Assembly (NCBI GenBank): GCA_949358305.1 | Contig: OX442314.1 | Span: 27,032,001-27,096,000 of the forward strand | Direction of reading: 5' to 3' | From: Strigamia acuminata | Taxonomy: Eukaryota | Length of the DNA: 64,000 bases | Shown: piece by piece, positions 3,501-38,487 of the stretch | Position numbering within the stretch: position 1 is the first letter of the stretch | Layout of the letters: each line of letters begins with the position of its first letter | The notes under the pieces: generated by a model | Database searches by the model: none | Told to the model about the DNA's origin: nothing | Seen by the model: the letters and a program-made list of their open reading frames with translations, nothing else | Made by a program: the position numbers and the translations under genes

Positions 3501-6500
3501 GCGAAAGTAACGAAAGGAAAGATTCTTCTTTCCTTTCGCAAATTGAACGCACCTAGTGTTTCTATGATGTTTAATCTACTATACTCACGTGTGAGGAGCA
3601 AGTAAAGGAAGTAGCCAGACCATTCTGCTTAGTTCCAGTAAAGTCGCTTCTGTATATGGCATTAACTTTTGATCTGACATTGATGGTTGTCTATCCGTTC
3701 CAATCACTTCGTCAATTTCCATTTGCACTTTTGCTTGCACGTGAGGGTATTTTACCATATACAATAGTAGGAATTCCAAACTCGTGCTTGTAGTGTCGCT
3801 TCCAGCAATAAACAATTCGCTCAATATTTTTGCCAGTTTCTTTTCTAGGAATGATAATAGATAAATAATAATACAGTTAGTTTCAATTTTAAAAAATTCT
3901 CAAATTCTCATATTCTCAAAAACTTCTCAAATTTGGATGAAAATTTAACTAAAAATTCCCAAATTTGGTGGTAATTCAACTATAAATTCTCAAATTTGGT
4001 GGTAATTCAACTATAAATTCTCAAATTTTGCTAGAAATTTAACTAAAAATTCTCAAATTTTATTTGAAATGTATAAAATAATTAGTTAAAATATTCCTTT
4101 GTAAATTTTGTGTCAAGGAACCTTTTGATGTGCTCGCTCTCAATTGAAAGTTTTGACGGGTTTTAACGGAATCGTAGGGTTTAATGAAGAAATGAACAAC
4201 TTTTTTGTCTGAGAGTAATTTGTAAATGTAGGAGTATTTACCATTAAAAATGGCGGTATTTGTATTCGGTTTCTCAGTTTCAGTTCTCCAAACATCAATA
4301 AAACTCTGTTGATTGTTTATGCCTTCGTGAATTTTGTCGTATTTTAGAACTTCGTCTAGGATCTTTCTGTACAGCAAAGCTCCTTTAACTCTGCACAAAT
4401 AAATGAAAAATGTCTTTAAAGTGCACTTAAGTTTAATGGCGTTTGGTACTGACGTCGGTTTTGTGATTCCAAGAAGTTTGACTATCCAGTCTGGCAGAAA
4501 TTCCGACCATTGGTCTATTCCTACCGAAGCTACAAGGTCATTGGATAACTGCATGAGTTGTTGAAAATCTTTATTCTCGTAGTCCATTCTTTCTCCGTAC
4601 ATGATTGTGCAAATTATATTAGTAATGCTTGTTCTAAGCATTTCTCGGAAGTAAGAAGGTTTTCCGTTCAAGCTTTTAATATTGTTTATTAAAAACTGTA
4701 ATTCATCCTAATAAAAGTAAAGAATAACTGTTGCAATTAATAAGATAATAAACTGGGCTTTGGGATTGTATTAATATACTTGAATTTTTGGTTCCAAACT
4801 TGCTTTACCCATCCCAAAGTTGCGCAGTGCAGTTAACGAGAAGCGTCGTAATTCTTGTCGAATCGCACCGCCACTTCCAAACATACCTGGAAAAAATTTA
4901 AAGCACTAGCAAAAATCACTAGTAAAAATCGTAGCAGGCGAATTCATAGTTATTTTGTGTAAACAACATTTTTAAACTGCTGTATGTAGGATTTGTTCTG
5001 AACTGACTTCAAACAATGGTGGTGGATTTAGTCTGTTTTAATTGCAGTGAGCATGCGCAAAACATTTAAACAACAAAAGATATTTAAATAAATGTTATTA
5101 CACATGCGTCTATGAATACGCTCAGTAAAAAATTAAATCACGAGTTGCATTCGAAAGCGTACTACCGGTAATATTCATCTCGATTTAATACATACCTTCT
5201 TGCGAGTCAAATGTCATAAGAATAGAAAAGTTGTGGGGTCTTTCTGTATAGTTGTCACTTAGTTGAAACATTTCTTTGATTAGTTTGAATGAGGATACAA
5301 CAACAACACGTTCATTTGCAATATAGATTCTGAAAACAGGGAAACGTACCCGATTATACATTTCAAAGCAGTTCCTTGTAGGACAACGAATTTACAATAG
5401 GATTCCAGTTCCAGGTTAGACAATTGAAACATGCCTGGACACTGGAGACCCAACAAAGTGTTGTATCGAACGCGAACTAATAGTTTGAGTTCGATACAAC
5501 ACTGCATACAACTCGAATTAAGTTCGTTAGTTCGCAAGCTAAGATCGCGAACTAGTTCACTTTTACAAGTGAATGCAAAAAACGAACTTAGTTCACTTTT
5601 AAGAGTGAACTTTAACGAAGTTTGCGTTCACCATGTTTGCAAAAACGTAACTTTTTCCATTGGTTTTAAACGTTTTGATGACATTTTCATCATCAAAACA
5701 TTCGTTTTGATTACTTTTTACAACGAAAAAGGCGAAATCAGCCGTTTTCGTCACTAAAATCAATGAAAACGACTGCTTTACTAAAAAAAAGTGTTTGTTT
5801 TTTTTCATCTGTAAACCACAAAACAAAAAAAAACATTTTAATTTTTTTAAAAAAAATTGGAAAAGTTGTCACGTTGTATTCGACTTTTTTAACAATGGTT
5901 TCGGAAATTTTGGGTTTCCAGGGATTGTAGTAATCATAAAATTGTGGTCCACAGACGCCGCACCTCTTAATACTTTGCCAGGGGTGGTAGCTAGGTAAAG
6001 ACAGCGTCTGTTTGTGAAATCTGTATTTATACAGCAAACCATCCCCAAACCATTTCCTGTATGTGTATCGGTCCACAACAATACATTAAAGGTTTCATGG
6101 ATCAATATACTTATCAAAAAGTATTGGAGGATTGTTATGCTTCCATTTGCAGATGATAAACTGCCTTTGACATGGATATTTCAGCAGGAAAATGATTCTA
6201 AACTTAAAGTCAAGTCATTTTCTCAGTTTTCCAAACCCATCACGTGTAGGTTTTGACTTGGCCTACACAATCACATACAAAATTTTGGTTATCCAACAAA
6301 ATATTGTAAAGTATTGTTCTTATAAACAATGATTTTCTGAAGAAACCGGTTTTTTGTGTGATTTTTTGGATGTGGTGCTAAGCTTTTTCTGCCGGCCCAA
6401 CTCACTTGAGGCAATTAGCGTGGTGGCCTAATACGAAGTGTGGGACTTGATCACTCCAGAATATTGTCAAGAACTAATAGAACCCATGCCAGACCATATT

Positions 6501-9462: not shown

Positions 9463-11316
9463 CAGTGTTGTATCGAACTAGAACTATTAGTTCGCGTTCG
9501 CGAACTTAGTTCTTAGTTCGCGAACTAAGAACGCGAACTAGTTCGCGATTCTTAAAGAACGAAAAAAACGAACGAAGTTCGTTTTTTGGACGCGAACTAC
9601 GTTCTAGTTCGTTAATTAGTTCGTTCCTCCAACGTTGTATTGCTCGGCCAATCATTGACGACTTCTGTAGTATAAGACTAGTGTAATTTCTGTAAATAAA
9701 ATAACTTGTGACATTCGACCCTGATAAGCTGTTGCGTATTTCATTGTTTAGTCGGATTTGGTGGATTTCCAACAATAGTCTACAATTCTATTTTGTTTCG
9801 TATTCGTTTTTTCCGAGGTCTGTGATCGTAATAATATGGAAGCTGAAGCTCAGAAGTTAATCGAAGCACGCAATAAACCCGTATACGACGGTAAGTTTTT
9901 TCAATGCATAAGTTTCAATGGGAAAAACTTTTCTGCAAAATGTGCTATTTGCGGATTGTCGATTTCGGTAGCAGCTGGAAGCACTGCTAATTTAAAACGG
10001 CATATCACAACAAAGCATGGGACTCTATTAGCGGAATTTATCGAACACACGAAATCAGCTACACCTGCGCGAAAACGAAAAGCAGTTGAAATTGATCCGG
10101 AATCGCACGGCAGCCAGAGAACTCTGAATTTCCCCATTTCAGATAGAATTTCCAGCAGTCAAAAGAATTGTGAAGAAGCTGTCATTCGTTTCATAATCAT
10201 GCGTTGGCAACCTTTGCGATTAGTTGAAGATGATGAGTTTCGACGACTTCTTAAAACATTTAATCCGACGTATAAACCAATGAATCGTGTAACACTTGTG
10301 AAACGAATTTCCGAAAAGTATGATCAAATATTTGACCAGTTGAAAATTAATCTCGAAGCGCAAGATTATGTATGTACGACAGCAGACATCTGGACCTCTC
10401 ATCGTAAAAGCTTTTTGGGGATGACCGTTCACTGGTTAAACGAAAATCTCGAAAGGAAATCGGCGGCAATTGCAGTTCAACGATTTACTGGATCACACAA
10501 CTACCTTGAAATAGCTAGAAAATTGGTTTCAATTCACAACAAATACGGCCTGGATCCATCGAAAGTTACAAAAACAATAACCGACAATGCCAGTAACTTT
10601 GTGAAGGCATTTAGGTTGTTTGAACACACCGAGTCCGATGCTGAAGCTGAAGAAATTGAAGATGAAGATGAACCGATAATTCTTCAATCGGTTGGAGATA
10701 TCTTGACTGGGCCAGAATCTATAACTGAAGTAGACAGTGAATTCGATTTCGATTTAGAATTACCATCGCATCTCCGATGCAGTGCACATTCGATTAACTT
10801 AATCGCTACAGCGGATGCTGCAACGGCCTTAAAAACGAACGTATACAAGAGGCGTTACAGCAGTGCAATGTCTAAATTCCAATCGATTTGCAACAAGATG
10901 AATCGTAGCGCACAGGTTGCAGAAAAACTACATGAAGTTTGTCATCGTTTCATTCCAACTCCTGGTATAACAAGATGGAATTCGTATTTCGACAGCATTT
11001 CTGTGCTGATCTCGCTGGAATCCAAGTTACCGAATATCTGTCAAATTACCAGTGTTGATGTTTTCACAAATCCTGAATTAGATTTTCTGAAAAGTTGGTT
11101 GCGAGTCATGCGTCCTGTTGCGACTGCGCTAGATCTAATGCAAGGGGAAAATGCGTATTTAGGAATGCTGTTGCCCACTTTAAAAGGCATCCAAGTTAAT
11201 CTTTCAAATTTGCAGAATTCTTTACATTCCAATGATGTAATTTTACATCTTGTTGCAGCTGTTTCGAAAGGACTGACTAAGCGAATATTCATCATACTGA
11301 GTATGATGAATATTCG
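9463..11316 (+). mobile_element. 3'-truncated hAT DNA transposon
   Basis: Left TIR CAGTGTTGTATCGAAC, dense GTTCG/CGAAC subterminal repeats to ~9625, transposase ORF; no right TIR seen. Confidence 0.8.
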
Positions 11317-11332
11317 GTATTCAGTGATTTGA
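9836..11332 (+). CDS. hAT transposase with BED zinc finger, C-terminally truncated
   Basis: BED finger CAIC...LKRHITTKH; TADIWTS, ITDNASN, RCSAH and TRWNS motifs. Similarity stops at ~11283; no catalytic-Glu/dimerisation region. Confidence 0.85.
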   Translation: MEAEAQKLIEARNKPVYDGKFFQCISFNGKNFSAKCAICGLSISVAAGSTANLKRHITTKHGTLLAEFIEHTKSATPARKRKAVEIDPESHGSQRTLNFPISDRISSSQKNCEEAVIRFIIMRWQPLRLVEDDEFRRLLKTFNPTYKPMNRVTLVKRISEKYDQIFDQLKINLEAQDYVCTTADIWTSHRKSFLGMTVHWLNENLERKSAAIAVQRFTGSHNYLEIARKLVSIHNKYGLDPSKVTKTITDNASNFVKAFRLFEHTESDAEAEEIEDEDEPIILQSVGDILTGPESITEVDSEFDFDLELPSHLRCSAHSINLIATADAATALKTNVYKRRYSSAMSKFQSICNKMNRSAQVAEKLHEVCHRFIPTPGITRWNSYFDSISVLISLESKLPNICQITSVDVFTNPELDFLKSWLRVMRPVATALDLMQGENAYLGMLLPTLKGIQVNLSNLQNSLHSNDVILHLVAAVSKGLTKRIFIILSMMNIRYSVI

Positions 11333-12139: not shown

Positions 12140-13725
12140 TGTGACGATTGACTTGGCGAGATACAAATTGCTTAACAGTTAACGTAGGAACTCGTGTGAA
12201 AGTGTAAAAGTACGGAGGCTTGTGATTTCTCAAATCATATGACAGTTTATTACAAGTCGGGAATTATATAAAACCTATGCCTACAAATGGCTAAATAACT
12301 TAGGTTAAATATACAATGGGTTGGCAAAAGCCCTGAAATAATATCACTTGCGGTTTTCAGTCTCGTAATAAGAATGTGTAACTTTCTTATTACGGTGACG
12401 TAAAAGATGTCGTCTGAGTATGGTTCGAGCTTCCAAATGGTCCTGGATTGATTCTAAAATGGTGTGTAATGGTTAGGCTTGGGTGTGTTATATCCGAGAG
12501 GTGCGGTTGTCTTTGGCACAATCATCACACGTATAATTATTGTTAATAATTATACAGCGCGATCATAAGAATGATGAAACAATCGGAATAAATATTCATG
12601 TAAATTCCATTGAATTAAACATGAGTATTGTGTTCACAAAGCTGGATAAATAACTATAAAAATAAAGAAATAATTAAAATAGCGCCGAGCTATTTTTTGC
12701 CCCGAGTGCAATCAACATTTAAGTCAGACTTAAATGTTCCATCAAACCAACAACGAAATGAATCGAAGTATTTCGCAGGAAAGGTTATCCATCGCCGGGA
12801 AATTACTCCACTCGGTTCTGGCTGGCGGGAGAGTAACCGGGAAATTACTCCGCGTCGATTACTCTGATAATGCGTCTGTGAAATATAAATACTCCACTCT
12901 AGATTCTACATTACCAATGCGTCTGTGAATTTTACTCCACTCTAGATTCTACATTCTACAACGGAATGTTGGCATGAAGCTGGAGGGAGTGCGTCTGTGG
13001 GTTGTACCCCACTCTAGATACTACACTTAAATGTGTCTGTGAATTACTCACTCTAGTTACTACATTTCTACAACGGAATGTTGGCATGAAGAGGCGGGCA
13101 GTGTGTCTGTGAGTCTTCTACCCACTCTAGATACTTACACTAAATACAAAGTATTTCTACAACGGATTGTCGGAACGCAGAGAAGTATAATATGTGCTCA
13201 AGTAATATCAGTATCAAACAAAAACAGAACAAGAGCGAGCTATATCCGTTTTGCAGGGGGATATATACTCGGTGAGGAGAATAGCTGTTCAGTGATCCAA
13301 TGGGATCACTGGGCAGTCAAATCCATCCAATCCCAGATCATAGGAAGTGGATACTCAGGACATAGTCTTCTACTAGGTCCACTACAGGAACTGGATACGC
13401 AGGGCACACTTTGGATTAAGTCCCTTTGACTATAATCCAAAAGGAGTCCAACTCACAGTGGGTGATGAAGGGTGACTTCACCAGGTGTAAAGTTTGCACA
13501 TAATTCAATAGAATTATGTGACAAATAAATCAACTAGTATTTAAACATCCAAAAAGTATTCAAAAGTGTCCAAAGTTGCAGTGGAATAAAATATAAATAG
13601 TAATTTATATTTTATTCACTCAAAAATTGTCGAAATTTGAAATTACCGCTAAAACGCATCAGCGCCATCTATTGGTGAAATAATCGTCCTATATTATCAA
13701 AGTGTATGACAGTGTAACCGTCACA
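12140..13725 (-). repeat. 3' LTR of element A (1586 bp)
   Basis: Direct repeat of 38488-39132 + 53102-54042; adjacent PPT AAGGGGGACT on the minus strand. Confidence 0.95.
12868..13141 (-). repeat. Array of five bulged-hairpin units in the A/B LTR (also in the other three A/B LTR copies)
   Basis: Plus-strand units RTGYGTCTGTG-n7-14-CACTCTAGWTWCT(T)ACAY at ~12870, 12917, 12989, 13031, 13101. Confidence 0.8.
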
Positions 13726-14388
13726 AGTCCCCCTTAAATATATGTTAATTCCATTGAATTTACATACTATTTACTCATATCTTGAGGATCAAGATCACAC
13801 TGTCATCTAGGAAGTTCGAGCTGTAATCCTTGGTAAGTAAAAACCTTTATTTTATATCTTAATAGTATAAATAAAGAGTATTTCTTAATCAAATGCTTCA
13901 AAAAATATTTATTCGGGTTATAAAACTTCCAATTATCAATAATAACTTCCATCTCTCTTTACAGGTGGACTTACAACTGCATTAAGAAAAGGCGATAACT
14001 TAAACTAACATCAAACTCTTGTACCAAACAAATGATTAATAAAATTTAACAATTATTTTCACAAAACTTAACTTCTCACTGGAAATATAATGATTTGCAA
14101 AATAACACTTTACACGTTAAAATTCAAGTATTAAAATTAGTATTTTTATAAACAAACTCACATTGACTCGTAATCAAATTTTAACGAAATTGTTAATTTA
14201 AATATTAAAGATCTTTGAATCATTCACAAAAAACGGCATAAAATACACCTGAACCTGAACCTGACTCAATCTTTGTTTCATCTCGGGTTGGGAATGAAGA
14301 TGGAAGAATTGAACTCGCTACCTCTGGTCTTGCCCTTAAAAGGGGAAATGTTGGGAAAGTAGCGGATCCCGACATCGTTGACGCTTTT

Positions 14389-16044
14389 TTAGTCCAACTC
14401 TTCATCCTCAATGAATCCTTCCATGGACGTAACAACTTCCGAGGTGGCTGCGGGTGGAGAGTTAAGTTGAATAGTTACCAATTCCGGTACTTCGTCCGGT
14501 TCAACGTCATGGTTCAGTGGATCCAGGAGCATTCTGTGTTGCTCCTCGGTGAATACTTCCAGGGGATCAGGCCCTCCTAACGGAATGGTGTTAGCGCTGG
14601 TTGGCTCGGAAAAAACCAAGTGATGGTCGGGTAAGCCAGAGTGCCATCCCTCACGAATCAACGGGTGAGCTGCTGCTGAGACCTGCTGCAAAATCTTACA
14701 CCAAATAAAAGAGCGAGTTTGAAAAGATTCCGGCCGAGATGGATGAAAAATCCATTGGATCACGGCCAGCGGCACGCTTAAATCTGGAATTCGGTCATTC
14801 GAAATAGACACACTAATACGCTTAGCTGCTTCCAATAAAATTGGGAAATAATGTTCCACTTCCGCCTTAGTTTGTTCTGTGAGTGACATGCTTGGTCTCG
14901 GCATATATGGATGAACCAGTAAAATGACCGGTTCAGCAGCGTCGCTTACTTCTGGGAGCGGAATAGTCGCTACAATCATGTTGTTAGCCGATGTTCCCTC
15001 TGGAAAAGCGGCGGTTTGCAGACCAGAATCGGATGCCACCGGCGGAGAATCAGACGCAGTAACTGACGTTGGAAGGTTTTCCGCCGAGACAACTGGAATT
15101 CCATCAATCGCAGGGGTGGGAGTTTCCGGCTCGCGTTGTGGCTCCGTAAATCCTCCTCGTGGAGTCGAGGTGCTGGACATTTGCGCCGGGTCTACATAAA
15201 TAGCCTGCTCCGGGCCCTGATGGATGAGGCCACATTCGCGGCACATCGCCCAATTGCGTGCTGTTGGCGTACTTAGCCCTTTGACGATGAAAGGAAGAAT
15301 TTCCTCGTTCCACATGCTCGATATGGCAACGCGCTTACCACCGTGACAGTTCACGCAGACTACGGCGTGAATGCCGGACAGAAGGGAGGATAACCACCCG
15401 CATCCTGCGCATAAAGGGCAGAACATGAGCTTCGACTTCGGCATGATGTTGGTTCCCAAGGCGGCAGCTTCCATATCGCGAAATACATGTTCTCGCCGTT
15501 GCTTCCGATAACTCGGTAAGTTGAGCTCCGATAATGAGCGAGCTTGCGATGTTGGGCGGGTCAACGCTTCGGATGAAGATGCCAACGTGGACTTGGTGGG
15601 TCCCTTGGTTTTGCCTGTCTTGCCTCGACTAGCGGTATCGCGAGGATTTCGTGGTCGGGCAAACTGTCTGCTGGTAGTCTGAGGTGGGGCTTCTTCATAA
15701 GATTCTTCTTCTTGTGAGAAGTCGTCTTGGCGCCGTCTCCTTGAAGCAGAACGGGAGTATTGTGACGAGTCGTCAGAAAAATCCCAATTCGGAGTCTCGT
15801 GGGGCGCATCATAGGTTACGACACGCTGACTAGCTTGACGGCCTCTGGAAGGACGCGAGTCGGTCGGGCTAACACCCATGGCGGTCCTAATTCGTGGTGG
15901 TACGAGATCCGGATTATCTCGGGCCCAGTTGGCGACGAGCTCGGGGTCAGAGGAGGGATTAACAAAGCGATAATCCGTCTCTTCCGACTTTTCTGGATCC
16001 CAATGCACGTACTGTCGCTTGCTAGCACGACCTCGGCGACTCAT
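14389..16044 (-). CDS. Element A ORF3: 551-aa uncharacterised Cys/His-domain protein in the env position
   Basis: ATG at 16044, 5 nt after candidate acceptor TTTTCTTGAAG; homologous to ORF3 of B and C; no signal peptide or TM seen. Confidence 0.85.
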   Translation of the reverse strand: MSRRGRASKRQYVHWDPEKSEETDYRFVNPSSDPELVANWARDNPDLVPPRIRTAMGVSPTDSRPSRGRQASQRVVTYDAPHETPNWDFSDDSSQYSRSASRRRRQDDFSQEEESYEEAPPQTTSRQFARPRNPRDTASRGKTGKTKGPTKSTLASSSEALTRPTSQARSLSELNLPSYRKQRREHVFRDMEAAALGTNIMPKSKLMFCPLCAGCGWLSSLLSGIHAVVCVNCHGGKRVAISSMWNEEILPFIVKGLSTPTARNWAMCRECGLIHQGPEQAIYVDPAQMSSTSTPRGGFTEPQREPETPTPAIDGIPVVSAENLPTSVTASDSPPVASDSGLQTAAFPEGTSANNMIVATIPLPEVSDAAEPVILLVHPYMPRPSMSLTEQTKAEVEHYFPILLEAAKRISVSISNDRIPDLSVPLAVIQWIFHPSRPESFQTRSFIWCKILQQVSAAAHPLIREGWHSGLPDHHLVFSEPTSANTIPLGGPDPLEVFTEEQHRMLLDPLNHDVEPDEVPELVTIQLNSPPAATSEVVTSMEGFIEDEELD

Positions 16045-17155
16045 TGCATCTTCAAGAAAAATATAAATTTTATTTGAGAACATGAATCAAACCGTCGGTA
16101 ATTAATTTAATTTCAAATTAAATTAATTGTCGACCAACAACTGGATTAATTTCACAATTAATTCTTAAGTTCCTTTTGTTAGCGGGTTTCCTTCATTTGT
16201 TGAATAATTATTAAAATTAATAATTATTCTTGACTCGGTAGATAATTTCATCTTATCTTTTAAAACAATATCGTTGACAAAATATTCAAATTAGTGTTTA
16301 TTAAATAAAATAAACCTAATTTTTGCATCTAAACGACATAATAACTAAAAAACCTGTCAAAATATTGAAAAATATTTTTGCAATATTTTTAGTATCTGAC
16401 AATATACATGATTTTTAACTGTACGAATAACTCTATAATTTGTCCGAGTAAAAATCTATCACCGACATCTGGTGGCGTTTGTTATTATCATACACGTGAC
16501 TTGTTAACACCAATTTCAAAGGAATTTTAAGAGACATTTTATGTTCATAAAATAAACACTTACTAACTAGGTGGAGTCCTAGAAGGGTATATTTGGCTAG
16601 TTTAACGTCTAGCTTCACGTATTTGCGAGGGCTGCCCGATTCCGGCGACGTTGGCCGATAAAAACGTTGTGCGGCGCGTGCGAATTCTAAGTCTGCCGTA
16701 ATGAACGCTTAACCAAAATAAATGTTGTCAATTAATGTCAAAATATTATAAATTTTGACAAAATATTGCTTAAATATTTACCGGGAATTCACTTAGTGAG
16801 TTCGTGAAAGGCTTACTCGCGATTTGTCCACGAGATGGTTTCGATAATCAACGTCGTGTCGATAATTTCTGAATTTGAACTGATATTCGTCAAATGAAAA
16901 AATCAGTAAAATAAACGATAAGTGTTCAAAATCATCTAGATTTTAACTCACTAAATTTCAGCGAAAATCCGTTAAAGCGTCGAAGAGTTGAGAATAATCC
17001 TTGGTTTCAGTCCAGTGTAAAACTTGGTGAACAAGTGAGTGATAATCTCAGACCAGGGGTTAAGGGGAGTTTCGAGGAGTAATTTGATTGGTTTGTAATT
17101 ACTCATCTCGAAGTTTCTATTAACCCAAAGGGGGAAACATAGTTTCAAGTAAATG

Positions 17156-18745
17156 TGTGACGATTACCTTCTGGAGATAGCAATTGCTAAACTAAAGTGT
17201 GAACTATCTGTGTGAAAATGTAAAATATGCAAACCTGATGTTTTCTCAAAGCATATAACATTTATTCCGGTTTGAACCTTATATAAATACTATGCCTACA
17301 AGTGGCTAAAATGACGATAAGTTAAACTATACAGTTATTTGGCAAAAGCCCTGAAATAATATCATTTGAAGGCTTCAGTCATGCAATAAGAATTTGTAAC
17401 GGTCTTATTGCTGTGACGTAAAAGATGTCATCTATGAATGGCTTTGGCTTCTAAATGGTCCGGGGTTTGGTTCTAAAAGGCGTGTAAATGGTTAGGCTGG
17501 GTGGGTTATATCCGAGAGGTGCGGTTGACTTTTCTGTATCGTCACACACATCGCATCGCAGATAATTATTGTAATCAATAATTATTGCGAGATGTAACAA
17601 TGTGAGAATAAATATTCATATTAATTCTATGGAAGTAATCATGATATTTTAGAGTCACAAACTTAACTAAAACTATGAAAATAAGTAAAATATATTAAAA
17701 TAGCGCCGAGCTATTTTTTGCCCCGAGTGCAATCAACATCTAAGTTAGACTTAAATGTTCCGTCAAACCAATAACGAATTGAATCGAAATATCTCGCAGG
17801 AAAGGTTATCCATCGCCGGGAAATTACTCCACTCGGTCCTGGCTGGCGGGAGAGTAACCGGGAAATTACTCCGCGTCGATCACTCTGATAATGCGTCTGT
17901 GAAATATAAATACTCCACTCTAGATTCTACATTACCAATGCGTCTGTGAATTTTACTCCACTCTAGATTCTGCACTCTACAACGGAATGTTGGCATGAAG
18001 CTGGAGGGAGTGTGTCTGTGGGTTGTACCCCACTCTAGATACTACACTTAAATGTGTCTGTGAATTACTCACTCTAGTTACTACATTTCTACAACGGAAT
18101 GTTGGCATGAAGAGGCGGGCAGTGTGTCTGTGAGTCTTCTACCCACTCTAGATACTTACACTAAATACAAAGTATTTCTACAACGGATTGTCGGAACGCA
18201 GAGAAGTATAATATGTGCTCAAGTAATATCAGTATCAAACAAAAACAGAACAAGAGCGAGCTATATCCGTTTTACAGGGGGATATATACTCGGTGAGGAG
18301 AATAGCTGTTCAGTGATCCAATGGGATCACTGGGCAGTCAAATCCATCCAATCCCAGATCACAGGAAGTGGATACTCAGGACATAGTCTTCTACTAGGTC
18401 CACTACAGGAACTGGATACACAGGACACACTTTGGATTAAGTCCTTTTGACTATAATCCAAAAGGAGTCCAACTCACAGTGGGTGATGGGGGGTGACTTC
18501 ACCAGGTGTAGAGTTTGCACATAATTCAATAGAATTATGTGACAAATAAATCAACTAGTATTTAAACATCCAAAAGTATTTAAAAGTGTCTAAAGTTGCA
18601 GTGGAATAAAATATAAATAGTAATTTATATTTTATTCACTCAAAAATTGTCGAAATTTGAAATTACCGCTAAAACGTATCAGCGCCATCTATTGGTGAAG
18701 TAATCGTCCTATACTAACAAAGTGTATGACAGTGTAACCGTCACA
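17156..18745 (-). repeat. 3' LTR of element B
   Basis: Matches 29536-31125 with no difference noticed. Confidence 0.95.
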
Positions 18746-19402
18746 AGTCCCCCTTAAATATATGTTAATACCTGTATTAACATACTATTTATCCCGAATA
18801 TCTTGAGGATCAAGACCACACTGTCATCTATGGAACTGGAGCTGTAATCCTTGGTAAGTAAAAACCTTTATTTTATATCTTAATAGTATAAATAAAGCGT
18901 ATTTCTTAATCAAATGCTTCAAAAAATATTTATTAGGATTATAAAACTCTCAATTATTAATAATAATTCCAATCTCTCTTTACAGGTGGACTTACAACTG
19001 TATCAAGAAAAGGCGATAACTTAAACTAACATCAAACTCTTGTACCAAACAAATGATTAATAAAATTCAACAATTATTTTCACAAAACTTAACTTCTCAT
19101 TGGAAATATAATGATTTGCAAAATAACACTTTACACGTTAAAATTCAAGTATTAAAATTAGTATTCATACAAACAAACTCACATTGACTCGTAATCAAAT
19201 TTTAACAGAATTGTTAGTTTAAATATTAAAGATCTTTGAGATATTCACAAAAACGGCATAAAATACACCTGAACCTGACTAAATCTTTGTTTCATCTCGG
19301 GTCAAGAAAATGGAGATGGAGAAAATGGACTCGTTACTTCTGGTCTTGCCTTAAAAGGGAAGATATCGGGAAAGTAACGGATCCCGACATCGTTGACGCT
19401 TT

Positions 19403-21058
19403 CTAGTCCAACTCTTCATCCTCAATAAATCCTTCCATGGATGTGACAACTTCCGAGACGGCTGCGGGTGGAGAATTAAGTTGAATAGCTACCAATTCCG
19501 GTACTACATCGGGCTCAACGTCATGGGCCAGGGGATTCAGGAGCATTCTGTGTTGTTCCTCGGTGAATACTTCCAGGGGATCAGGCCCTCCTAACGGAAT
19601 GGTGTTAGCGCTGGTTGGCTCGGAGAAAACCAAGTGATGGTCGGGTAAGCCAGAGTGCCATCCCTCACGAATCAATGGGTGTGCTGCTGCTGAGACCTGT
19701 TGCAAAATCTTACACCAAATAAAAGAGCGGGTTTGAAAAGATTCCGGCCGGGATGGATGGAAAATCCATTGGATCACGGCCAGTGGCACGCTCAAATCTG
19801 GAATTCGGTCGTTTGAAATCGACACACTAATACGCTTAGCTGCTTCCAATAAAATTGGGAAATAATGTTCCACTTCCGCCTTAGTTTGCTCCGTGAGTGA
19901 CATGTCTGGTCTCGGCATATATGGGTGGACCAGTAAAATAACCGGTTCAGCAGCGTGGCTTACTTCTGGGAGCGGAATAGTCGCTACAATCATGTTGTTA
20001 GTCGATGTTCCCTCTGGAGAAGCGGCGGCTTGTGGACCAGAATCGGATGCAACCGGCGGAGAATCAGACGCAGTAACTGACGTTGGAAGGTTTTCCGCCG
20101 AGACAACTGGAGTTCCATCAATCGCAGGGGTGGGAGTTTCCGGCTCGCGTTGTGGCTCTGTAAATCCTCCTCGTGGAGTCGAGGTGCTGGACATTTGCGC
20201 CGGGTCTACATAAATAGCCTGCTCTGGGCCCTGGTGGATGAGGCCACATTCACGACACATCGCCCAATTGCGTGCTGTCGGCGTACTTAGCCCCTTGACG
20301 ATAAATGGAAGAATTTCTTCATTCCACATGCTGGATATGGCAACGCGCTTACCACCGTGACAGTTCACGCAGACTACGGCGTGAATGCCGGATAACAAGG
20401 ACGACAACCATCCGCATCCTGCGCATAATGGGCAGAACATAAGCTTCGATTTTGGCATGATGTTAGTGCCCAAGGCGGCAGCTTCCATATCTCGAAATAC
20501 ATGTTCTCTTCGCTGCTTACGGTAACTTGGCAAATTTAGCTCTGATATCGAGCGAGCCTGCGAGGTTGGGCGAGTCAACGCTTCGGATGAAGATGTCAGC
20601 GTGGACTTGGTGGGTCCTTTGGGCTTGCTGGTTTTGCCTCGACTAGCGGTATCGCGAGGATTTCGTGGTCGGGCAAACTGCCTGCTGGTGGTCTGAGGTG
20701 GAGCTTCTTCAACCGATTCTTCTTCTTGCGAGAAGTCATCTTGGCGCCGTCTCCGTGAAGCAGAACGGGAGTATTGTGACGAGTCGTCAGAAAAATCCCA
20801 ATTCGGAGTCTCGTGAGGCGCATCATAGGTTACGACGCGCTGACTAGCTTGACGGCCTCTGGAAGGACGCGAGTCGTTCGGACTAACGCCCATGGCGCTC
20901 CTAATTCGTGGCGGTACGAGATCCGGGTTATCACGGGCCCAGTTGGCGACGAGCTCGGGGTCAGAGGAGGGATTAACAAAGCGATAATCCGTCTCTTCCG
21001 ACTCTTCTGGATCCCAATGTACGTATTGTCGCTTGCTAGCACGACCTCGGCGACTCAT
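19403..21058 (-). CDS. Element B ORF3, 551 aa
   Basis: Nearly identical protein to A ORF3 despite many synonymous differences. Confidence 0.85.
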   Translation of the reverse strand: MSRRGRASKRQYVHWDPEESEETDYRFVNPSSDPELVANWARDNPDLVPPRIRSAMGVSPNDSRPSRGRQASQRVVTYDAPHETPNWDFSDDSSQYSRSASRRRRQDDFSQEEESVEEAPPQTTSRQFARPRNPRDTASRGKTSKPKGPTKSTLTSSSEALTRPTSQARSISELNLPSYRKQRREHVFRDMEAAALGTNIMPKSKLMFCPLCAGCGWLSSLLSGIHAVVCVNCHGGKRVAISSMWNEEILPFIVKGLSTPTARNWAMCRECGLIHQGPEQAIYVDPAQMSSTSTPRGGFTEPQREPETPTPAIDGTPVVSAENLPTSVTASDSPPVASDSGPQAAASPEGTSTNNMIVATIPLPEVSHAAEPVILLVHPYMPRPDMSLTEQTKAEVEHYFPILLEAAKRISVSISNDRIPDLSVPLAVIQWIFHPSRPESFQTRSFIWCKILQQVSAAAHPLIREGWHSGLPDHHLVFSEPTSANTIPLGGPDPLEVFTEEQHRMLLNPLAHDVEPDVVPELVAIQLNSPPAAVSEVVTSMEGFIEDEELD

Positions 21059-22361
21059 TGCATCTTCAAGAAAATATAAATTTTATTTGAGAACATGAAT
21101 CGAAACGTCGGCAACTAATTTAATTTAAATTAAACTAATTGTCGACCTAAAATCGGGTTAAATTCCATAATTAATTCTTAAGTTCCCTTTGTTAGCGTGT
21201 TTCCTTCATTTGTCGAATAATTATTAAAATTAATAATTATTCTTGACTTGGTAGATAATTTCATCTTATCCTTTAAAAACAATATTGTTGACAAAATATT
21301 CAATTTAGCGTTTATTAGATGAAATAAACCTAATTTTGGCACCTAAACGACATAATAACTAAAAAACCTGTCAAAATATTAAAAAATATTTTTGCAGGTT
21401 TTTAGTACCTGACAATAGTCACTTTTCATGATTTTAACTGTACGAATAATTCTATAATTCGTCCGAGTAAATAATCCATCACCGACATCTGGTGGCGTTT
21501 GTCACTATCATACACGTGACTTGTTAACACATGTATGCTCACCAATTTCCAAGGAACTTAAGAGATATTTTATCTTTCATAAAATAAACACTTACTAATT
21601 AGGTGCAGTCCTAAAAGGGTATATTTGGCTAGTTTAACGTCTAGCTTCACGTATTTGCGAGGGCTGCTCGGTTCCGGCGACGTTGGCCGATAAAAACGTT
21701 GTGCGGCGCGTGCGAACTCTAAGTCTGCCGTAATGGACGCTTAACCAAAATAAATGTCGTCAATTAATGTCAAAATATTATTAATTTTGACAAAATATTG
21801 CTTAAATATTTACCGGAAAATCACGTAGTGAATTCGCGGGAAGGTTCCTTGCGATTCTGCCACGAAATAGTTTCGATAATCAGCGTTGTGTCGATAATTT
21901 CTGAATTTGAACTGATATTCGTCAAATGAAAAAATCAGTAAAATAAACGATAAGTGTTCAAAATCATCTAGATTTTAACTCACTAAATTTCAGCGAAAAT
22001 CCGTTAAAGCGTCGAAGAGTCGAGAATAATCCTTGATTTCAGTCCAGTACAAAACTTGGCGAACAAGTGAGTGATAATCTCAAACCAGGGGTTAAGGGGA
22101 GTTTCGAGGAGTAATTTGATTGGTTTGTAATTACTCATCTCGAAGTTTCTATTAACCCAAAGGGGGAAACACAGTTTCAAGTAAATGTTTACACGTAGAT
22201 TAATTTAAATACGATCGGCCGTGTAAAAATAACTCAAACATTTGTTAAATTTTATTCACAAAAAAAAAAAAATGTTTTTAATTAATAAAATCTAACAATC
22301 CTTCGTGAATATGATTGGGAATATTTATTTTAAAATAAAATATTTTCAATATATTGTGTCT

Positions 22362-25300
22362 TTAACCCAACTTGACTTGTTTTAGACAATTTACGAGTTG
22401 TACAAAATCGGTCACGTATTTTGTGTTCGGCTTGGGTCTACGTTTAGACTGTCGAACGGGAGATGGAAATCTTTTCCTCTTTTTAGACGGATTTTGAGGA
22501 GTTTCGTCCTCTTTAGAAGAAATTTGAGAAGTTTCCTCCTCTTTCTCTTCAACTAAATTCTCTGTTTCCATGGATACAGGCTCATTTATTAATTCAGAAT
22601 TAATAACTTGATCCGCCATCCAATCTGGAGTCGGGTGTGACTCGTTGGTGCCGACTTTCTGGTCTAATGTCCATTCCTCAATCGGATAACTTGGGATATA
22701 AGGCATTAAATCCTGTATGTTGATCGCTTTTGCTTTCGTGTTATCGGAAAGCTTCCGTAGTGTGTAGGAACCTCCGCCGAGAACAGCCGTAATTTCCCAA
22801 GGTCCATCACGTTTCTCAGCGAATCCTGCCGAAATCCCTTTATCTTTATTCGATAAAATATGTGTGGCTTTCCACACGAGATCTCCTTTGGCGAATTGAC
22901 AAATATAATATTTGTCTTTATGTAGTCGATCATGCTTTTCGTAATTCGATTGAATTTTTCGATGCATTTCGCTGTGTGCACGTCTAATTACGTCTAAAAT
23001 ACTATAGACATAGGCTTCGGGGTTCTCTTTGTCGAATTTGATAGCGTGTTTAGTAATACGCGGGTCAAATGGCAAAGGAACGATTCTTCCGGTATTAAGA
23101 ATCATCGGAGAACAATTTGTTGCCTCGGACTTGGCGGTGCGCATTGCAAAGGCAAAAGAATTTAAATATTTTGGCCAGTGGGAGTGAATGTCCGAGTATA
23201 AAGCTAACATCATTTTTAAAGTCCTGTTAGCCCGCTCTGTAATATTAGCGGCAGCGTGATATGGACTAATGTGAGCAATATCTACGTGATTTTTTTGACA
23301 AAAATCATTAAATATTGTCGACACGAATTGTTTGCCGTTGTCGGAGATTATCTTTTTTGGATATCCCCAACGGTGGAAAACTTCGCTCATTTTATTAACG
23401 ATGCATTCACTTGATGCAGTCGCTAGTGGGAAGACTTCAATCCATTTTGTACAATTATCAATGATTACGAAAATCCATTTTAATTGTGAACGACCGGCTG
23501 GTTTTGGTCCCATCAGGTCAATGCTTACAGTCTCCCACGGGTTGGTCATGTTGTGGGGTGTATAGCTTGCCCGATGCTTTTGGTGTTGACTAGGTTTGTA
23601 TTGTTGGCAATGAGTGCAACTGCGAACGTAGTTTCGAGTGTCTTTGCTCATTCTAGGCCAGAAATACATCTTTTTTGCTCTATCTAGGGTTTTGCTCATG
23701 CCGGCATGTCCTGTAAGTGGGTGGCCATGGCATGCGAATAATGCACGTCTCACAAGAGAGCGTGGAATTACCGCCTTAAACCCGTTGCCGGAGTCGTTTA
23801 ACTCCTCCTCATCGGTCGGAGCAAAATAAATTAGCATAACACCTTTATTTTCTTCCGGTTCGTCGAGAGTGTAGCCACGAATCGCATTTAACCAATGTTT
23901 ATCCGTGATACGATTTTTTAATTTTTCGTCTCCTTTTAGGTAAACAAGGATTTTACTACATGCTGGATCTTTAAGCTGCGCTTCGATAATTTCGTCTCGC
24001 GTCGGCGGAACTACTTTTAGGATATCTGTTAGCGCAGTGTGTACATTTTCGTGATTACAATTGTGGACATCTATATGTCTGCAATTTTCTCTCGTACATC
24101 CTTCTTCCTCCCCCTTTTCTCCAGAATCATGAAATCTAACTGGATTATATGATTCTGAGAAAAAATCCAAACTAAGGCCAACATTTGTGAGAAAATGTTT
24201 GCGCTCAGTCTCCGTCACTTGTAAAGATGCACACCTGTTTCCATTCCAAGTTGGATAGAAATGGGTGATTTCCTCTGGTTCGATATAATCGTAATCCGGA
24301 GTGTCTAGTGCAGACAGTGGGGCGCGTGACAATGCGTCCGCTACTTGGTTCATTGCGCCGCGTCTAAAAATAATTTTAAACGCGCCACATTGTATTTTGA
24401 CGGCCCAACGACCAAACCTTCCCGATGGTTCCGGCGTACTCATCAACCAGCTAAGGGCCTTAGCATCGGACTCGAGAGTGAAAGTCGTGTATTCAATATA
24501 TGGGCGAAATCTTTCGATTGCCCATACAACAGCCAAACACTCCAATTCCGGCGTAGAATACCTTACTTCGGCCCCGTGTAACACTCGACTGGCGTACGCG
24601 ACTGCTTTCGGGACCATTATTAATTTCTGTTTCTTTTCACAGAATAATTCTACGTCTTGACAGAGTACTGCACCTAAACCTGAATGAGAAGCATCTGTCA
24701 AAATGACAAAAGGCTTATTCATATCTGGCATGTGGAGAAGGGCTTGGTCCTTGTCACACAAAATATCTTTGATAGTTTCGAATGCAGTTGTTTGTGGATC
24801 ATCCCACACAAACTTTGCTTGATCATGCATAATATTGGTCAATGGACGAGCAATATTTGCGATGTTAGGAATGAATTTTCGGAAAAAATTCGCAAGTCCT
24901 ACAAATCTTTGAATGTCTTTAGAACAAGTCGGTTTGGGAAAATTCCTTACAGCCGAGACTTTGTCAGGGTCTGGAAGAAGAGATCCCTCCGAAATTAAAT
25001 GGCCTAAAAATCGTAATGATGTTCGACCAAATTTTGACTTGTCTTTATTGATAGTTAGATTTGCGGCATCTAACTTCTCAAGTACGTCTTTAATATGTAA
25101 TAAATGATTTTCCCAGGTGTCGGAAAAAATAATTATATCGTCTAAGTAGACCAGAGCGTGTTTATATAAAGAGTCACCCAGTACGGTAGTCATGAGGTGT
25201 TGAAAAGAACTAGGTGCATTACAAAGACCAAATGGCAATCTCTTGAATTGAAATTTGCCTTTTGGGGTGTAAAAAGCAGTTTTGCTCTTATCCTCCTCCT

Positions 25301-26639
25301 CCATTTCCATTTGATGATAACCTTTAGTTAAATCAATGGACGTAAAGTACTTGGCCTGATTAGTATGGTGAATCAATAGGTCAATACTTGGCATTTGAAT
25401 TGCATCAACTTCTGTGATCGCATTCAACCAGCGGTAGTCGATACATAATCGATACTTCCCGCCGGGTTTAGCCACTATGACGGGGTGACTTATATAAGGG
25501 CCAGTGGCAGGTTCGATTAACCCATCAGCCTCTAACTCCTCGACCAATTCCGTCATAATGGCCTTCTTGGCCGGGTTGTACATTCTATACGGCTGGTGTT
25601 TCCAAGTAGCACCAGGTTTAAACTTGATGCTGTGCTTGGCCACCTTCGTGCAGCCCAATTGATCTCGAAATACGTTTTTTAATTTCAAAAGAACGTTTAC
25701 GAGTAATTGTTTTTCTTCCGCCGAGCTGTTGCAGCCTTCGACGAGTTTTTCTGCCCAGTCCGGTGAGGTGGGATTTCCTTCACCTTGGAGACCCAAAGTC
25801 TTAATGCTTGCTAAGCAACAGTTAAGTTCAGTGGTCTCGTACGGGGCTGTCCATCCGGGCATGTCATCACAGGTGAACACAGCCCGTCGGGGATTAGGGT
25901 TTATCCCCGTTCTACGCATAAAATTGTGACCCAAAATCAACCCACATACATTCTTGTGTAGAATTATGAAGGTCATAGGTGTAACTCTCCTTTTATCGGC
26001 CCATTTGACACAAAGACAAACTTGACCGATAGGTCGGTGATCTATTCCGACCGCGCAGACACGCATTCCCCGGGGACATTCTTGTATGAATTCCACCGGA
26101 ATTTCTGTGTTTGAGAGGAGTTGTACTCCAATAAAACATTGGGTGGCTCCAGAGTCCATTAGTGCGTTGTAATCCAAATCTCCAATTTGGACATTCATAC
26201 GCGGATCATCTTTGCCACCATTGATTAATTTGCTATTGCAAAGTTTGCCAAGCAATACTTTTCGTCCTTTCTTGTTCCATTTTTCAAGTTTAAGAAGTTT
26301 TCTTAACTTGAAAACTTTGGGTACAAGCGGTTTCTTGGGTGCATTCCAGCTTCCACTGAAAATACTCAAATTTTCTAGTTGGTTTGTCATGACTTTTAAA
26401 TTTTCATCGACACCGCCAGTAGAGCTGCTAGTCTTTCGACAGACAGGTACTGCTTCGTAAGAAATGACCAACGATGGTGGTTTATTCTTCGAATCGTCGA
26501 CATATGGCACTGTGAGGTGACTAGGCTTATGTCTTAATTTAAATTCATCTTTCCGTGAAAATAAATCATTTGACAATTCCGAGAGAGGAAACAATTCGTT
26601 AGGCGGGGGTTGGGCAATTTGAACAACCCCCTGAATCAG
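22362..26639 (-). CDS. pol: Element B Pol (PR-RT-RNaseH-IN), via -1 frameshift
   Basis: LMDSGA, YLDD, TDAS, HHCC, D..D..E and RDGPW motifs; frame open back to slippery A-AAA-AAC at 26639-26645. Confidence 0.95.
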   Translation of the reverse strand: MIQGVVQIAQPPPNELFPLSELSNDLFSRKDEFKLRHKPSHLTVPYVDDSKNKPPSLVISYEAVPVCRKTSSSTGGVDENLKVMTNQLENLSIFSGSWNAPKKPLVPKVFKLRKLLKLEKWNKKGRKVLLGKLCNSKLINGGKDDPRMNVQIGDLDYNALMDSGATQCFIGVQLLSNTEIPVEFIQECPRGMRVCAVGIDHRPIGQVCLCVKWADKRRVTPMTFIILHKNVCGLILGHNFMRRTGINPNPRRAVFTCDDMPGWTAPYETTELNCCLASIKTLGLQGEGNPTSPDWAEKLVEGCNSSAEEKQLLVNVLLKLKNVFRDQLGCTKVAKHSIKFKPGATWKHQPYRMYNPAKKAIMTELVEELEADGLIEPATGPYISHPVIVAKPGGKYRLCIDYRWLNAITEVDAIQMPSIDLLIHHTNQAKYFTSIDLTKGYHQMEMEEEDKSKTAFYTPKGKFQFKRLPFGLCNAPSSFQHLMTTVLGDSLYKHALVYLDDIIIFSDTWENHLLHIKDVLEKLDAANLTINKDKSKFGRTSLRFLGHLISEGSLLPDPDKVSAVRNFPKPTCSKDIQRFVGLANFFRKFIPNIANIARPLTNIMHDQAKFVWDDPQTTAFETIKDILCDKDQALLHMPDMNKPFVILTDASHSGLGAVLCQDVELFCEKKQKLIMVPKAVAYASRVLHGAEVRYSTPELECLAVVWAIERFRPYIEYTTFTLESDAKALSWLMSTPEPSGRFGRWAVKIQCGAFKIIFRRGAMNQVADALSRAPLSALDTPDYDYIEPEEITHFYPTWNGNRCASLQVTETERKHFLTNVGLSLDFFSESYNPVRFHDSGEKGEEEGCTRENCRHIDVHNCNHENVHTALTDILKVVPPTRDEIIEAQLKDPACSKILVYLKGDEKLKNRITDKHWLNAIRGYTLDEPEENKGVMLIYFAPTDEEELNDSGNGFKAVIPRSLVRRALFACHGHPLTGHAGMSKTLDRAKKMYFWPRMSKDTRNYVRSCTHCQQYKPSQHQKHRASYTPHNMTNPWETVSIDLMGPKPAGRSQLKWIFVIIDNCTKWIEVFPLATASSECIVNKMSEVFHRWGYPKKIISDNGKQFVSTIFNDFCQKNHVDIAHISPYHAAANITERANRTLKMMLALYSDIHSHWPKYLNSFAFAMRTAKSEATNCSPMILNTGRIVPLPFDPRITKHAIKFDKENPEAYVYSILDVIRRAHSEMHRKIQSNYEKHDRLHKDKYYICQFAKGDLVWKATHILSNKDKGISAGFAEKRDGPWEITAVLGGGSYTLRKLSDNTKAKAINIQDLMPYIPSYPIEEWTLDQKVGTNESHPTPDWMADQVINSELINEPVSMETENLVEEKEEETSQISSKEDETPQNPSKKRKRFPSPVRQSKRRPKPNTKYVTDFVQLVNCLKQVKLG

Positions 26640-28660: not shown

Positions 28661-29515
28661 AATACTCAAAGAAATACACGTACAACAAGAAAAAATAAGA
28701 TTTTAACTGAACTAGCGTAAATGTAACACGCTTAATATTAAACTAAGAAATAATTTGAAAAAATACAACCTTAGCTGCTGAAACTGAAGTGGCTTCGGGA
28801 AAAAACTGTCCTGTTGAGTGGTCAAGAATGGTCCAAACGGGCACTGGTCACAAGGCACAACTGGATGGTCGCACTGTCGAAAAGCAAGTGTGGCTGAATA
28901 TTGGTTGTCAAACTAGCTTCCGGAAAATCTCCTTTGTCAAGACAGTCTGCTGTGATTGGCGATGTTGAAAAATTTCTGATAATTTCTAATCCGAAATTCT
29001 CAACAATGTCACATCTGGATGACCTACTCCGAGCTGCATCGTGAGTGGCTCTCTTTGTCACATTCTTTACTTCGTCAAAGATAAAAATAATAATCCAAAA
29101 CGTTGAACAGAACAATGGAAACTTGGTCAAGTTTTTTAACCAGCAAAATAAAATGTTTTAACTTGTTATTTTTCAGTCAGCAGGATTTCTAGTCAAATTC
29201 GTTTTTTGATCGAAATTCAAGGTTTCGAAATTTTCCAGAATATAGTCGAATATTCTGGGAAACTCAACAAAATCAAAATAGATTTTTTTGTACGAAATTC
29301 GGATTTATAATGAGTTTTTCAAAATAATCCAAAAATTCGAATTCAGATATTTCCAAAAGATAATGAGAATTTTTTGAAAACAAATGGATATTTCACAGTA
29401 AGTTTATAGAAAAAAATCGGAAATTTCTAATTATAATATCTACATAAAATAATCAAGAAATTTATTTTTCAATTTTACACTTGATCACAGAGTTCACTTC
29501 AATAAAACGCAACCT

Positions 29516-29533
29516 ATCTCGGTGGGACCTCCA
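29516..29533 (-). promoter_or_regulatory. Primer binding site of B, tRNA-Gln type
   Basis: TGGAGGTCCCACCGAGAT, 2 nt inside the 5' LTR. Confidence 0.85.
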
Positions 29534-29535
29534 CG

Positions 29536-31125: not shown

Positions 31126-31303
31126 AATGTTTACACGTAGATTAATTTAAATACAATCGGCCGTGTAAAAATAACTCAAACATTTGTTAGATTTTATTCA
31201 CACCAAAAAAAAATGTTTTTAATTAATAAAATTTAACAATCCTTCGTGAATATGATTGGAAATATTTATTTTAAAATAAAATATTTTCAATATATTGTGT
31301 TTT

Positions 31304-37632: not shown

Positions 37633-38467
37633 AATACTCAAAAGGAATACACGTACAAAACAATAATAAAATTTAAATGAAACTAGCGTAAACGAAACAC
37701 GCTTAATATTAAACTAAAAATGAATTGAAAAAATACAACCTTAGCTGCTGAAACTGAAGTGGCTTCGGGAAAGGACTGTCCTGTTGCGTGGTCAAGAATG
37801 GTCCAAACGGGCACTGGTCACAAAGGCACAACTGGATGGTCGCACTGTCGAAAAGCAAGTGTGGCAGAATATTGGTTGTCAAACTAGCTTCCGGAAAACC
37901 TCCTTTGTCAAGACAGTCTGCTGTGATTGGTGATGTTGAAAAATTCCTGATAATTTCTAATCCGAAATTCTCAACAATGTCACATCTGGATGACCTACTC
38001 CGAGCTGCATCGTGAGTGGCTCTCTTTGGCACATTCTTTACCTTGTCAAGGATTAAGAATAATAATCCAGAACTAGTCAAGTTGTCAACCAGTAAAAAAA
38101 ATATTTTAACTTTTTATTTTTTAGTCAGCAGAATTTCTAGTCAAATTCGTTTTTTGATCGAATTTCAAGGTTTCGAAATTTTTTCCAGAATATAGCCGAA
38201 TATTCTGGGAAACTCAATAAACTCAAAATAGATTTTTCGTAAGAGATTCGGAATTATAATGAGTTTTTTCAAAATAATCCAAAAATTCGAATTCAGATAT
38301 TTCCAAAAGATAATGAGAATTTTTTGAAAACAAATGAATATTTCACAGTAAATTTATAGAGAAAAAATCGGAAATTTTCTAATTATAATATCTACATAAA
38401 ATAATCAAAAAATTCATTTTTCAATTTTACACTTGATCACAGAGTTCACTTCAATAAAATGCAACCT

Positions 38468-38485
38468 ATCTCGGTGGGACCTCCA
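38468..38485 (-). promoter_or_regulatory. Primer binding site of A, tRNA-Gln type
   Basis: TGGAGGTCCCACCGAGAT next to the 5' LTR. Confidence 0.85.
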
Positions 38486-38487
38486 CG

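Follow-up and report, generated by a model that had tools for sequence, protein, structure and literature searches.

Three nested Ty3/gypsy elements

The window analyzed here, a 64,000-nucleotide stretch of the Strigamia acuminata genome, contains three nested Ty3/gypsy elements of about 14 kb each (A, B, and C), which were resolved by self-BLAST of the window and all lie on the minus strand. Element A (12140-17156, 31125-39133, and 53097-54043) is interrupted by both of the others. Element B (17155-31126; TSD CATT) was inserted into the spacer that separates pol from the third open reading frame (ORF3) of A, and element C (39132-53097; TSD CCTT) was inserted into the 5' LTR of A, which is split into two parts (38488-39133 and 53097-54043). 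The 3' LTR of A (12140-13726) is 100% identical to the 5' LTR, and the element has the TSD ATGT. The LTRs of B (17155-18746 and 29535-31126) are also 100% identical, and those of C (39132-40888 and 51341-53097) are 99.94% identical. In addition to LTR pairs of 99.9 to 100% identity and a 4-bp TSD each, the elements have a common PBS and a purine tract 5' of the 3' LTR. A, B, and C are young LTR retrotransposon insertions.

The gag and pol genes of A (35581-37632 and 31304-35611, minus strand) have been cut off from ORF3 of the same element by the insertion of B, which encodes its own gag (26636-28660) and pol (22362-26666), as does C (48176-50512 and 43884-48200). The pol domains identified with Pfam are in the order protease-RT-RNaseH-integrase, the gags contain a zinc knuckle, and the closest PDB match to pol is Ty3 Gag-Pol (E value of 1e-104). 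A and B belong to one family, with nucleotide identities of 97% in pol and 93% in ORF3, and C represents a second family, with 65% amino acid identity to A/B in pol. The LTR of A/B contains a 112-bp tandem repeat; none was reported in the C LTR by TRF.

A conserved non-envelope gene between pol and the 3' LTR

All three elements contain an open ORF3 in the sense orientation relative to gag-pol, located between pol and the purine tract and 3' LTR and starting 0.8 to 1.3 kb beyond the pol stop. ORF3-B (19403-21058, minus strand) encodes 551 amino acids, and ORF3-C (41396-43072, minus strand) encodes 558. ORF3-A (14389-16044, minus strand) also encodes 551 amino acids when read from the ATG that is common to B, and an upstream ATG at 16083, in frame in A alone, would extend it to 564 (14389-16083). 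The first-pass annotation had described a sense ORF of about 550 amino acids in the place of env in each element, which is borne out; the start that it gave for ORF3-A, at 16051, misses the ATG by several nucleotides. The proteins of A and B are 96% identical and those of A and C 28% identical, with a range of 24 to 30% between families.

Hydropathy analysis detected neither a TM-like stretch nor a hydrophobic N terminus in ORF3-A, -B, or -C, in agreement with the earlier impression that signal peptides and TM helices are absent. The maximum 19-residue Kyte-Doolittle value was 1.55 in A and B, where the peak falls within the Cys block described below, and 0.95 in C. None of the three proteins matched an env family in Pfam at E values of up to 1, and they contain 0 (A), 1 (B), and 3 (C) NxS/T sites. 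In these elements, ORF3 represents an accessory gene that is conserved and does not encode an envelope protein. Host domestication was rejected as an explanation for it, since the ORFs sit inside elements with identical LTRs and TSDs. An overlapping 223-amino-acid frame at 42115-42786, which has no Pfam match, was regarded as a shadow frame and dismissed.

The ORF3 proteins are organized as a basic N-terminal half, a Cys module, a predicted helical domain, and an acidic tail. The N-terminal 205 residues have a net charge of +7 to +16 and contain K/R clusters, and the C-terminal 80 residues have a net charge of -13 to -18 and contain 9 to 12 W/F/Y/L residues. The Cys block (15232-15420 in A, 20246-20434 in B, and 42170-42358 in C, all on the minus strand) includes three CxxC pairs and follows the pattern C-x2-C-x3-GW-x6-G-x-H-x3-C-x2-C-x-G-x-K-x7-W-x4-LPF-x-V-x-G-x3-P-x-AR-x-WA-x-C-x-EC in A, B, and C, letter for letter and gap-free as first described. 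The second domain (14629-14922 in A, 19643-19936 in B, and 41663-41962 in C, all on the minus strand) contains the common block LLVxP..P...EVxxYFP...IF...RxESF...IW...LI...W..GLP and is helical by prediction (model of ORF3-B, pLDDT of about 50 to 63). Both this block and the acidic tail had been noted at the outset, together with KRxYV and WARxxPxLxP motifs, and all of them were recovered in A, B, and C.

Neither the complete ORF3 proteins nor either of the two domains had an above-cutoff match in Pfam, which in particular returned no J-domain, no GDSL or DEDD profile, and no enzyme or known suppressor family, and a sequence search of PDB gave no match to ORF3 below an E value of 0.1. The AlphaFold models were of low confidence (mean pLDDT of 36.5 and 46.5); with these models, the top hits of one fold search (Z score of 6.0) were assorted helical proteins, a second fold search reached a Z score of 2.4, and BFVD contained no fold match at E values of up to 0.001, results that neither assign a fold to ORF3 nor argue against one. 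The initial failure to recognize the family thus persists at the level of Pfam, PDB, and fold comparison of low-confidence models.

Purifying selection and persistence among copies

Comparison of ORF3 between A and B identified 88 synonymous changes at 405 sites and 25 nonsynonymous changes at 1248 sites (Fisher P value for the synonymous excess, 2e-35), giving a dN/dS ratio of 0.079. Values near 1, which had been named as evidence against selection on ORF3, are thus far from what is observed, and the excess of silent changes reported for the Cys block amounts to 23 synonymous versus 1 nonsynonymous. By region, dN/dS was 0.01 in the Cys block, 0.03 in the second domain, 0.07 in the basic low-complexity tract, 0.19 in the acidic tail, and 0.76 in the linker; the values for pol and gag of the same elements were 0.074 and 0.32. 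Selection on ORF3 in A/B is strong and purifying rather than diversifying, and the gene is about as constrained as pol.

Two public sequencing runs yielded thousands of variant contigs for the internal region of B and hundreds for the C stretch, with reads covering all 30 bins in both runs, at depths that do not represent copy number. Of the 17 variant sites listed in ORF3-C (40 of 54 variant rows), 14 were synonymous, and the sole indel in the coding part, judged from the full indel table, falls in the A-run at the start codon. Four variant sites were listed in ORF3-B, one synonymous and three nonsynonymous (40 of 275 variant rows), and all three nonsynonymous variants yield the residue found in A; among the 12 of 39 indel rows listed, two fall in ORF3-B, and these cancel each other. 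These variant contigs give no indication that ORF3 is missing from most copies, an outcome that had been raised as a challenge to its importance. One contig joint bypasses most of ORF3-C (depth of 118 in X1 and 40 in X2); with a side of 35 nucleotides it was too weak for an ORF3-less subfamily of C to be called.

Relatives of ORF3 in Strigamia maritima

A profile of the ORF3 core, searched against 1.84 billion protein representatives at E values of up to 0.001, gave four matches: P0121 (7e-27), P0122 (8e-25), P0124 (4e-6), and P0123. The last is a Cys-rich HYR-repeat protein and was dropped as a false positive, and a second search (3 matches among 7995 candidates) contributed P0129. The four real relatives are all UniProt gene models of the centipede Strigamia maritima, and no others were found among the 1.84 billion proteins. 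A word-indexed search with the three full ORF3 proteins matched 0 of 7994 candidates, which is attributed to a lack of sensitivity because the profile search returned four matches. No relatives were found in viral (0 of 79) or metagenome (0 of 468) contig stretches. Scans with pol recovered distant gypsy loci alone (9 of at least 597, with 31 to 41% identity; 0 of 66 in another scan), and none of the nine encodes either ORF3 domain.

In three of the four S. maritima models, fragments of pol are fused to an ORF3 that follows them, and in UniProt the relatives are concealed in gene models labeled as polymerase or retropepsin proteins. P0121 is 30% identical to ORF3-C over 310 amino acids that span both domains, and P0129 contains the complete second domain; the acidic tail is not visible in these gene models. 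Of 107 integrase rows with an aligned length of 250 amino acids or more, the 40 that scored best were placed in a midpoint-rooted tree, for which P0121 and P0122 lacked sufficient length. In this tree, A, B, C, and P0129 together make up one side of a branch with support of 100/99. Of the other rows, P0005 and element D lie nearest. Given the pol-ORF3 gene models and this integrase grouping, ORF3 is, as far as sequence comparison can tell, a gene inherited with pol in one gypsy lineage, which has two or more hosts. The assignment of ORF3 to two gypsy families in the first-pass annotation is correct for A/B and C and too narrow overall, since one or more additional species also have members of the protein family. 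Being constrained like pol and persisting in a second species, ORF3 is a gene on which the lineage appears to depend.

A six-Cys domain loosely resembling zinc ribbons

All seven sequences have Cys1 to Cys4, the GW motif, an RR upstream, and a W downstream, and Cys5 and Cys6 are kept in all six sequences that are long enough to cover them. The His of the Cys block is present in A, B, C, and one of the four Strigamia relatives and is replaced by Asp in the other three. The domain had been characterized as having six Cys and one His; because of these replacements its core is redefined as the six Cys alone.

Cys1 to Cys4 resemble two CxxCxGxG repeats, most clearly in P0124, with the Gly pattern partly kept, and the third CxxC lies 31 residues beyond them. 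CxxC pairs are typical of intracellular metal sites. Cys1 to Cys4 would make up one C4 zinc ribbon, and the third CxxC would need two more ligands; the helix region before the block retains one Cys and one His in C and the Strigamia relatives that A/B lack. Below threshold, the domain matched anti-TRAP, GRXCR, ZNF512, and other zinc ribbons. The anti-TRAP match was seen in four of six members (best E value of 0.019), and the best zinc ribbon score was 15.4 bits, compared with a Pfam cutoff of 32. In PHROGs, weak zinc ribbon matches were the only ones obtained, with a best E value of 5e-4 to an unnamed family. The Atlas neighbors of the poor P0121 model were DnaJ/anti-TRAP proteins, with TM scores of about 0.3, and an Atlas feature search with the Cys domain gave a single match (0.75). 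The likeness to the DnaJ Cys-rich domain and anti-TRAP (PF00684 and PF15777) lies in the approximate repeats of Cys1 to Cys4; all matches are subthreshold, however, the Gly residues are only partly kept, and ORF3 has a third CxxC and no J-domain match. From its composition and zinc ribbon-like motif, ORF3 may bind nucleic acid. The ligand of DnaJ-type zinc ribbons is often protein rather than nucleic acid.

CpG-rich spacers and candidate expression signals

Since ORF3 starts 0.8 to 1.3 kb past the pol stop, it would need a separate mRNA. The pol-ORF3 spacers (minus strand) are enriched in CpG, with observed/expected ratios of 1.58 in the 3' part retained next to ORF3-A (16045-17154), 1.70 in B (21059-22361), and 1.79 in C (43073-43883), values reached by 0 to 1 of 2000 shuffles; the ratios of leaders and 3' UTRs (0.90 to 1.45) are not significant. 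A pyrimidine tract AG resembling a splice acceptor lies exactly 5 nucleotides 5' of the ORF3 ATG in A, B, and C, and the B and C spacers are otherwise unalignable with each other. A pyrimidine tract filter, set after the sites had been seen, retained 2 of the 46 spacer AGs in A, 2 of the 55 in B, and 3 of the 50 in C, and in each element one of those retained is at -5. Donor-like sites are present in the spacers of B (GTAAGT at 21595) and C (three sites), and such words also occur in the B LTR. These signals suggest that ORF3 is made from its own spliced transcript, and the spacers of B and C are candidate internal promoters; the acceptor at -5 fits an LTR-driven spliced mRNA equally well.

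ORF3 compared with other accessory genes of retrotransposons

LTR retrotransposons are usually viewed as encoding gag and pol, with at most an additional env. Extra non-env genes between pol and the 3' LTR have been described in bdelloid rotifers, where the ORF3s are GDSL esterases or DEDDy nucleases (PMC5408684), and in plants, where gene23 of the maize element Grande has its own promoter and a nuclear product (PMC7264820). The rotifer proteins differ in being enzymatic, whereas ORF3 has no GDSL or DEDD match, and the non-env additional ORFs discussed for plant gypsy elements are antisense (PMC7264820), whereas ORF3 is sense. CERV, a 517-amino-acid nuclear protein of the C. elegans LTR element Cer1, is similar in size, combines a Cys finger with structured domains joined by flexible linkers, and is made from a spliced mRNA, as is proposed here for ORF3; it is needed for genomic RNA to be exported from the nucleus (PMC10309623). 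In contrast to CERV, ORF3 stands alone as a gene 3' of pol, the two having been compared by description. By the tests run, ORF3 is a member of none of the rotifer, plant, or CERV kinds.

In the main text of a survey of env-containing metazoan retrotransposons (PMC13524379), the words Strigamia, centipede, myriapod, and zinc do not appear, and the available text of an ostracod retrotransposon survey (PMC7998251) includes nothing similar to ORF3. No published description was found in the literature searched, which extended to sources other than subscription journals, supplements, and Repbase, Dfam, and GyDB. Judged by sequence, ORF3 is a new two-domain protein family in an already known arrangement, that of a non-env third ORF, and it offers two domains of no recognized family for structural study. 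Regulatory accessory proteins of animal elements with a tested function are rare, with CERV being the clear case found.

Possible functions of ORF3

The layout of ORF3 (basic half, zinc module, helical domain, and acidic tail), combined with a probable dedicated promoter, suggests a nuclear protein that regulates the element itself, and we consider that ORF3 probably acts in trans on its own element, at the level of either DNA or RNA. More specifically, and with the odds somewhat against it, ORF3 may be a trans-activator or antisilencer analogous to Tas of foamy viruses. Its transcript would begin in the CpG-rich spacer, at an internal promoter, and carry a spliced leader; the basic N-terminal clusters would direct nuclear import; the six-Cys domain, predicted to bind zinc, would contact element DNA; and the helical domain or acidic tail would recruit a coactivator, such that LTR transcription would be switched on or desilenced by ORF3. 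Tas/Bel1 is likewise the product of an accessory gene with an internal promoter, as is proposed for ORF3 (PMC517496 and PMC13220597), and is reported to act on internal and LTR promoters alike by binding both (PMC517496). The basic-plus-acidic layout suits a trans-activator, and Grande gene23 and VANC serve as further analogies. However, no sequence homolog of Tas/Bel1 was found in Pfam or in the profile search of 1.84 billion proteins, and the carrier of ORF3 is a gypsy element without env. Counting against the trans-activator reading, selection on the acidic tail is weaker than on the other end of the protein (dN/dS of 0.19), the tail is not visible in the Strigamia gene models, and three of the four variants listed in ORF3-B are nonsynonymous. 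The LTR and spacer have two 9-mers in common, compared with a shuffle mean of 0.47; because this number was reached in 7 of 60 shuffles and is not significant, a Tas-type response element is not demonstrated.

The main rival, which we regard as unlikely while giving it real weight, is that ORF3 acts in the manner of Rev or CERV, with the protein made from spliced mRNA binding unspliced genomic RNA and licensing its export or stability. The genomic RNA would still contain the spacer donors as well as the acceptor at -5, and the Arg-rich N-terminal half and the invariant RR ahead of the Cys block would suit such a role, for which the Cys finger protein CERV provides a precedent (PMC10309623). 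The Cys loop of CERV (C193, C195, C200, and C269) is spaced differently, however, and CERV has a G-protein-like domain and shares exons with gag (PMC10309623), whereas ORF3 is unlike the gag of its own element. A simple NES pattern also had no match at a position common to A/B and C. ORF3 might instead antagonize host defense through protein contacts, by inhibiting small RNAs or a restriction factor or by serving as a ubiquitin ligase adaptor of the kind represented by Vif and Vpx. A zinc module and a small helical domain joined by predicted disordered tracts would be suitable for this purpose, and ORF3 has diverged quickly (24 to 30% identity between families, compared with 65% in pol), but the purifying selection between A and B is not of the diversifying kind and Pfam reveals no enzyme or known suppressor family, making this explanation quite improbable.

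Still less probable is that ORF3 serves as a particle cofactor or targets integration by anchoring the integration complex on chromatin, perhaps that of its own element kind. B and C did land in A while the LTRs of A were still identical, and an MBD acquired by Strigamia Copia elements has been proposed to direct their integration; known domains of this type (MBD and chromodomain) nevertheless lie within the element coding sequence (PMC6673714). ORF3 is a separate gene 0.8 to 1.3 kb past the pol stop, and a single locus cannot reveal insertion bias. The env position and the acceptor-like site just upstream would fit an atypical env, or a movement protein, serving spread between cells, but we hold this reading to be very improbable, given that ORF3 lacks a hydrophobic N terminus and TM-like segment, has few or no NxS/T sites (0, 1, and 3), matches no env family in Pfam, and has CxxC pairs that suit intracellular metal sites.

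If the trans-activator reading is extended to the lineage as a whole, env would have been replaced in a myriapod-associated gypsy lineage by a zinc protein that has two domains, belongs to a new family, is driven by an internal promoter, and trans-activates or desilences the LTR of its own element, a composite scenario that we consider possible and rather unlikely in its entirety. Strigamia TEs are methylated (PMC6673714), and ORF3 is a candidate for how elements remain active in transposon-methylating arthropods. The available text of a 2019 review describes TE-encoded antisilencing factors from plants alone (PMC6719617). VANC of the Arabidopsis VANDAL elements, which removes DNA methylation from its own family by way of a tandem motif, is, like ORF3, a transposon accessory protein in a host group that methylates TEs (PMC6719617), and the 112-bp tandem repeat, absent from the C LTR by TRF, adds to the likeness in the case of the A/B LTR; VANC belongs to a plant DNA transposon, however, and homology to ORF3 was not found. 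Were the replacement of env and self-activation true, ORF3 would be the animal LTR retrotransposon counterpart of Tas and VANC.

Nested insertion of the three related elements

The three minus-strand Ty3/gypsy elements A, B and C constitute a triple nesting within one clade, and this nesting is very recent. Over window positions 12140 to 54043, the LTRs of A were still identical when both B and C had inserted into it. The insertion points of B (in the spacer between pol and ORF3, the accessory gene preceding the 3' LTR) and of C (in the 5' LTR) are both noncoding, and the landing of both elements in A possibly reflects a preference for insertion site. The primer binding sites of A, B and C (window positions 29521, 38473 and 51327) are identical and presumably match a tRNA-Gln primer.

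A and B belong to one family, and their synonymous divergence is uneven along window positions 14389 to 37632 (dS of 0.04 in gag, 0.12 in pol and 0.26 in ORF3), which suggests recombination between subfamilies.

Shared sequence elements in LTRs and at the gag-pol junction

One block of 87 nt, located about 320 to 410 nt from the LTR 5' end, is common to the LTRs of B (29535 to 31126) and C (51341 to 53097; a second family), with an identity of 75% and an E value of 7e-10; elsewhere these LTRs are divergent. The block carries the motif GTATCCA(C/G)TTCC in duplicate and is a candidate response element or host factor site. The A and B LTRs contain a 112-bp tandem repeat (2.2 copies; 12890 to 13145, plus copies), TRF reported no tandem repeat in the LTR of C, and the latter begins with TA, not TG. 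The word AGATG(G/T)CG, which we take to be similar to the CTCF core, occurs in identical orientation in both families, close to the LTR start and in the spacers (13663, 16463, 18683, 21483, 40787 and 43135, plus LTR copies); a shuffle test gave no significance.

In B and C, pol lies in the -1 frame relative to gag, and AAAAAAC is found immediately 5' of the gag stop, with a G-run after it (regions of 26636 and 48176); this is likely a ribosomal frameshift signal.

Other features of the window

A fourth gypsy element, D (56798 to 63999, plus strand), is related to A, B and C by its integrase and continues past the window edge; an in-frame TAG (58451 to 58453) separates a 551-amino-acid frame from its gag core. 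The window also holds a plus-strand BED-finger transposase open reading frame (9836 to 11332), presumably hAT-like as judged from its motifs, and a minus-strand cytochrome P450 fragment (4060 to 4641). Self-BLAST of the window identified 54776 to 55627 as an 85 to 87% copy of flanking sequence at 3555 to 4671.
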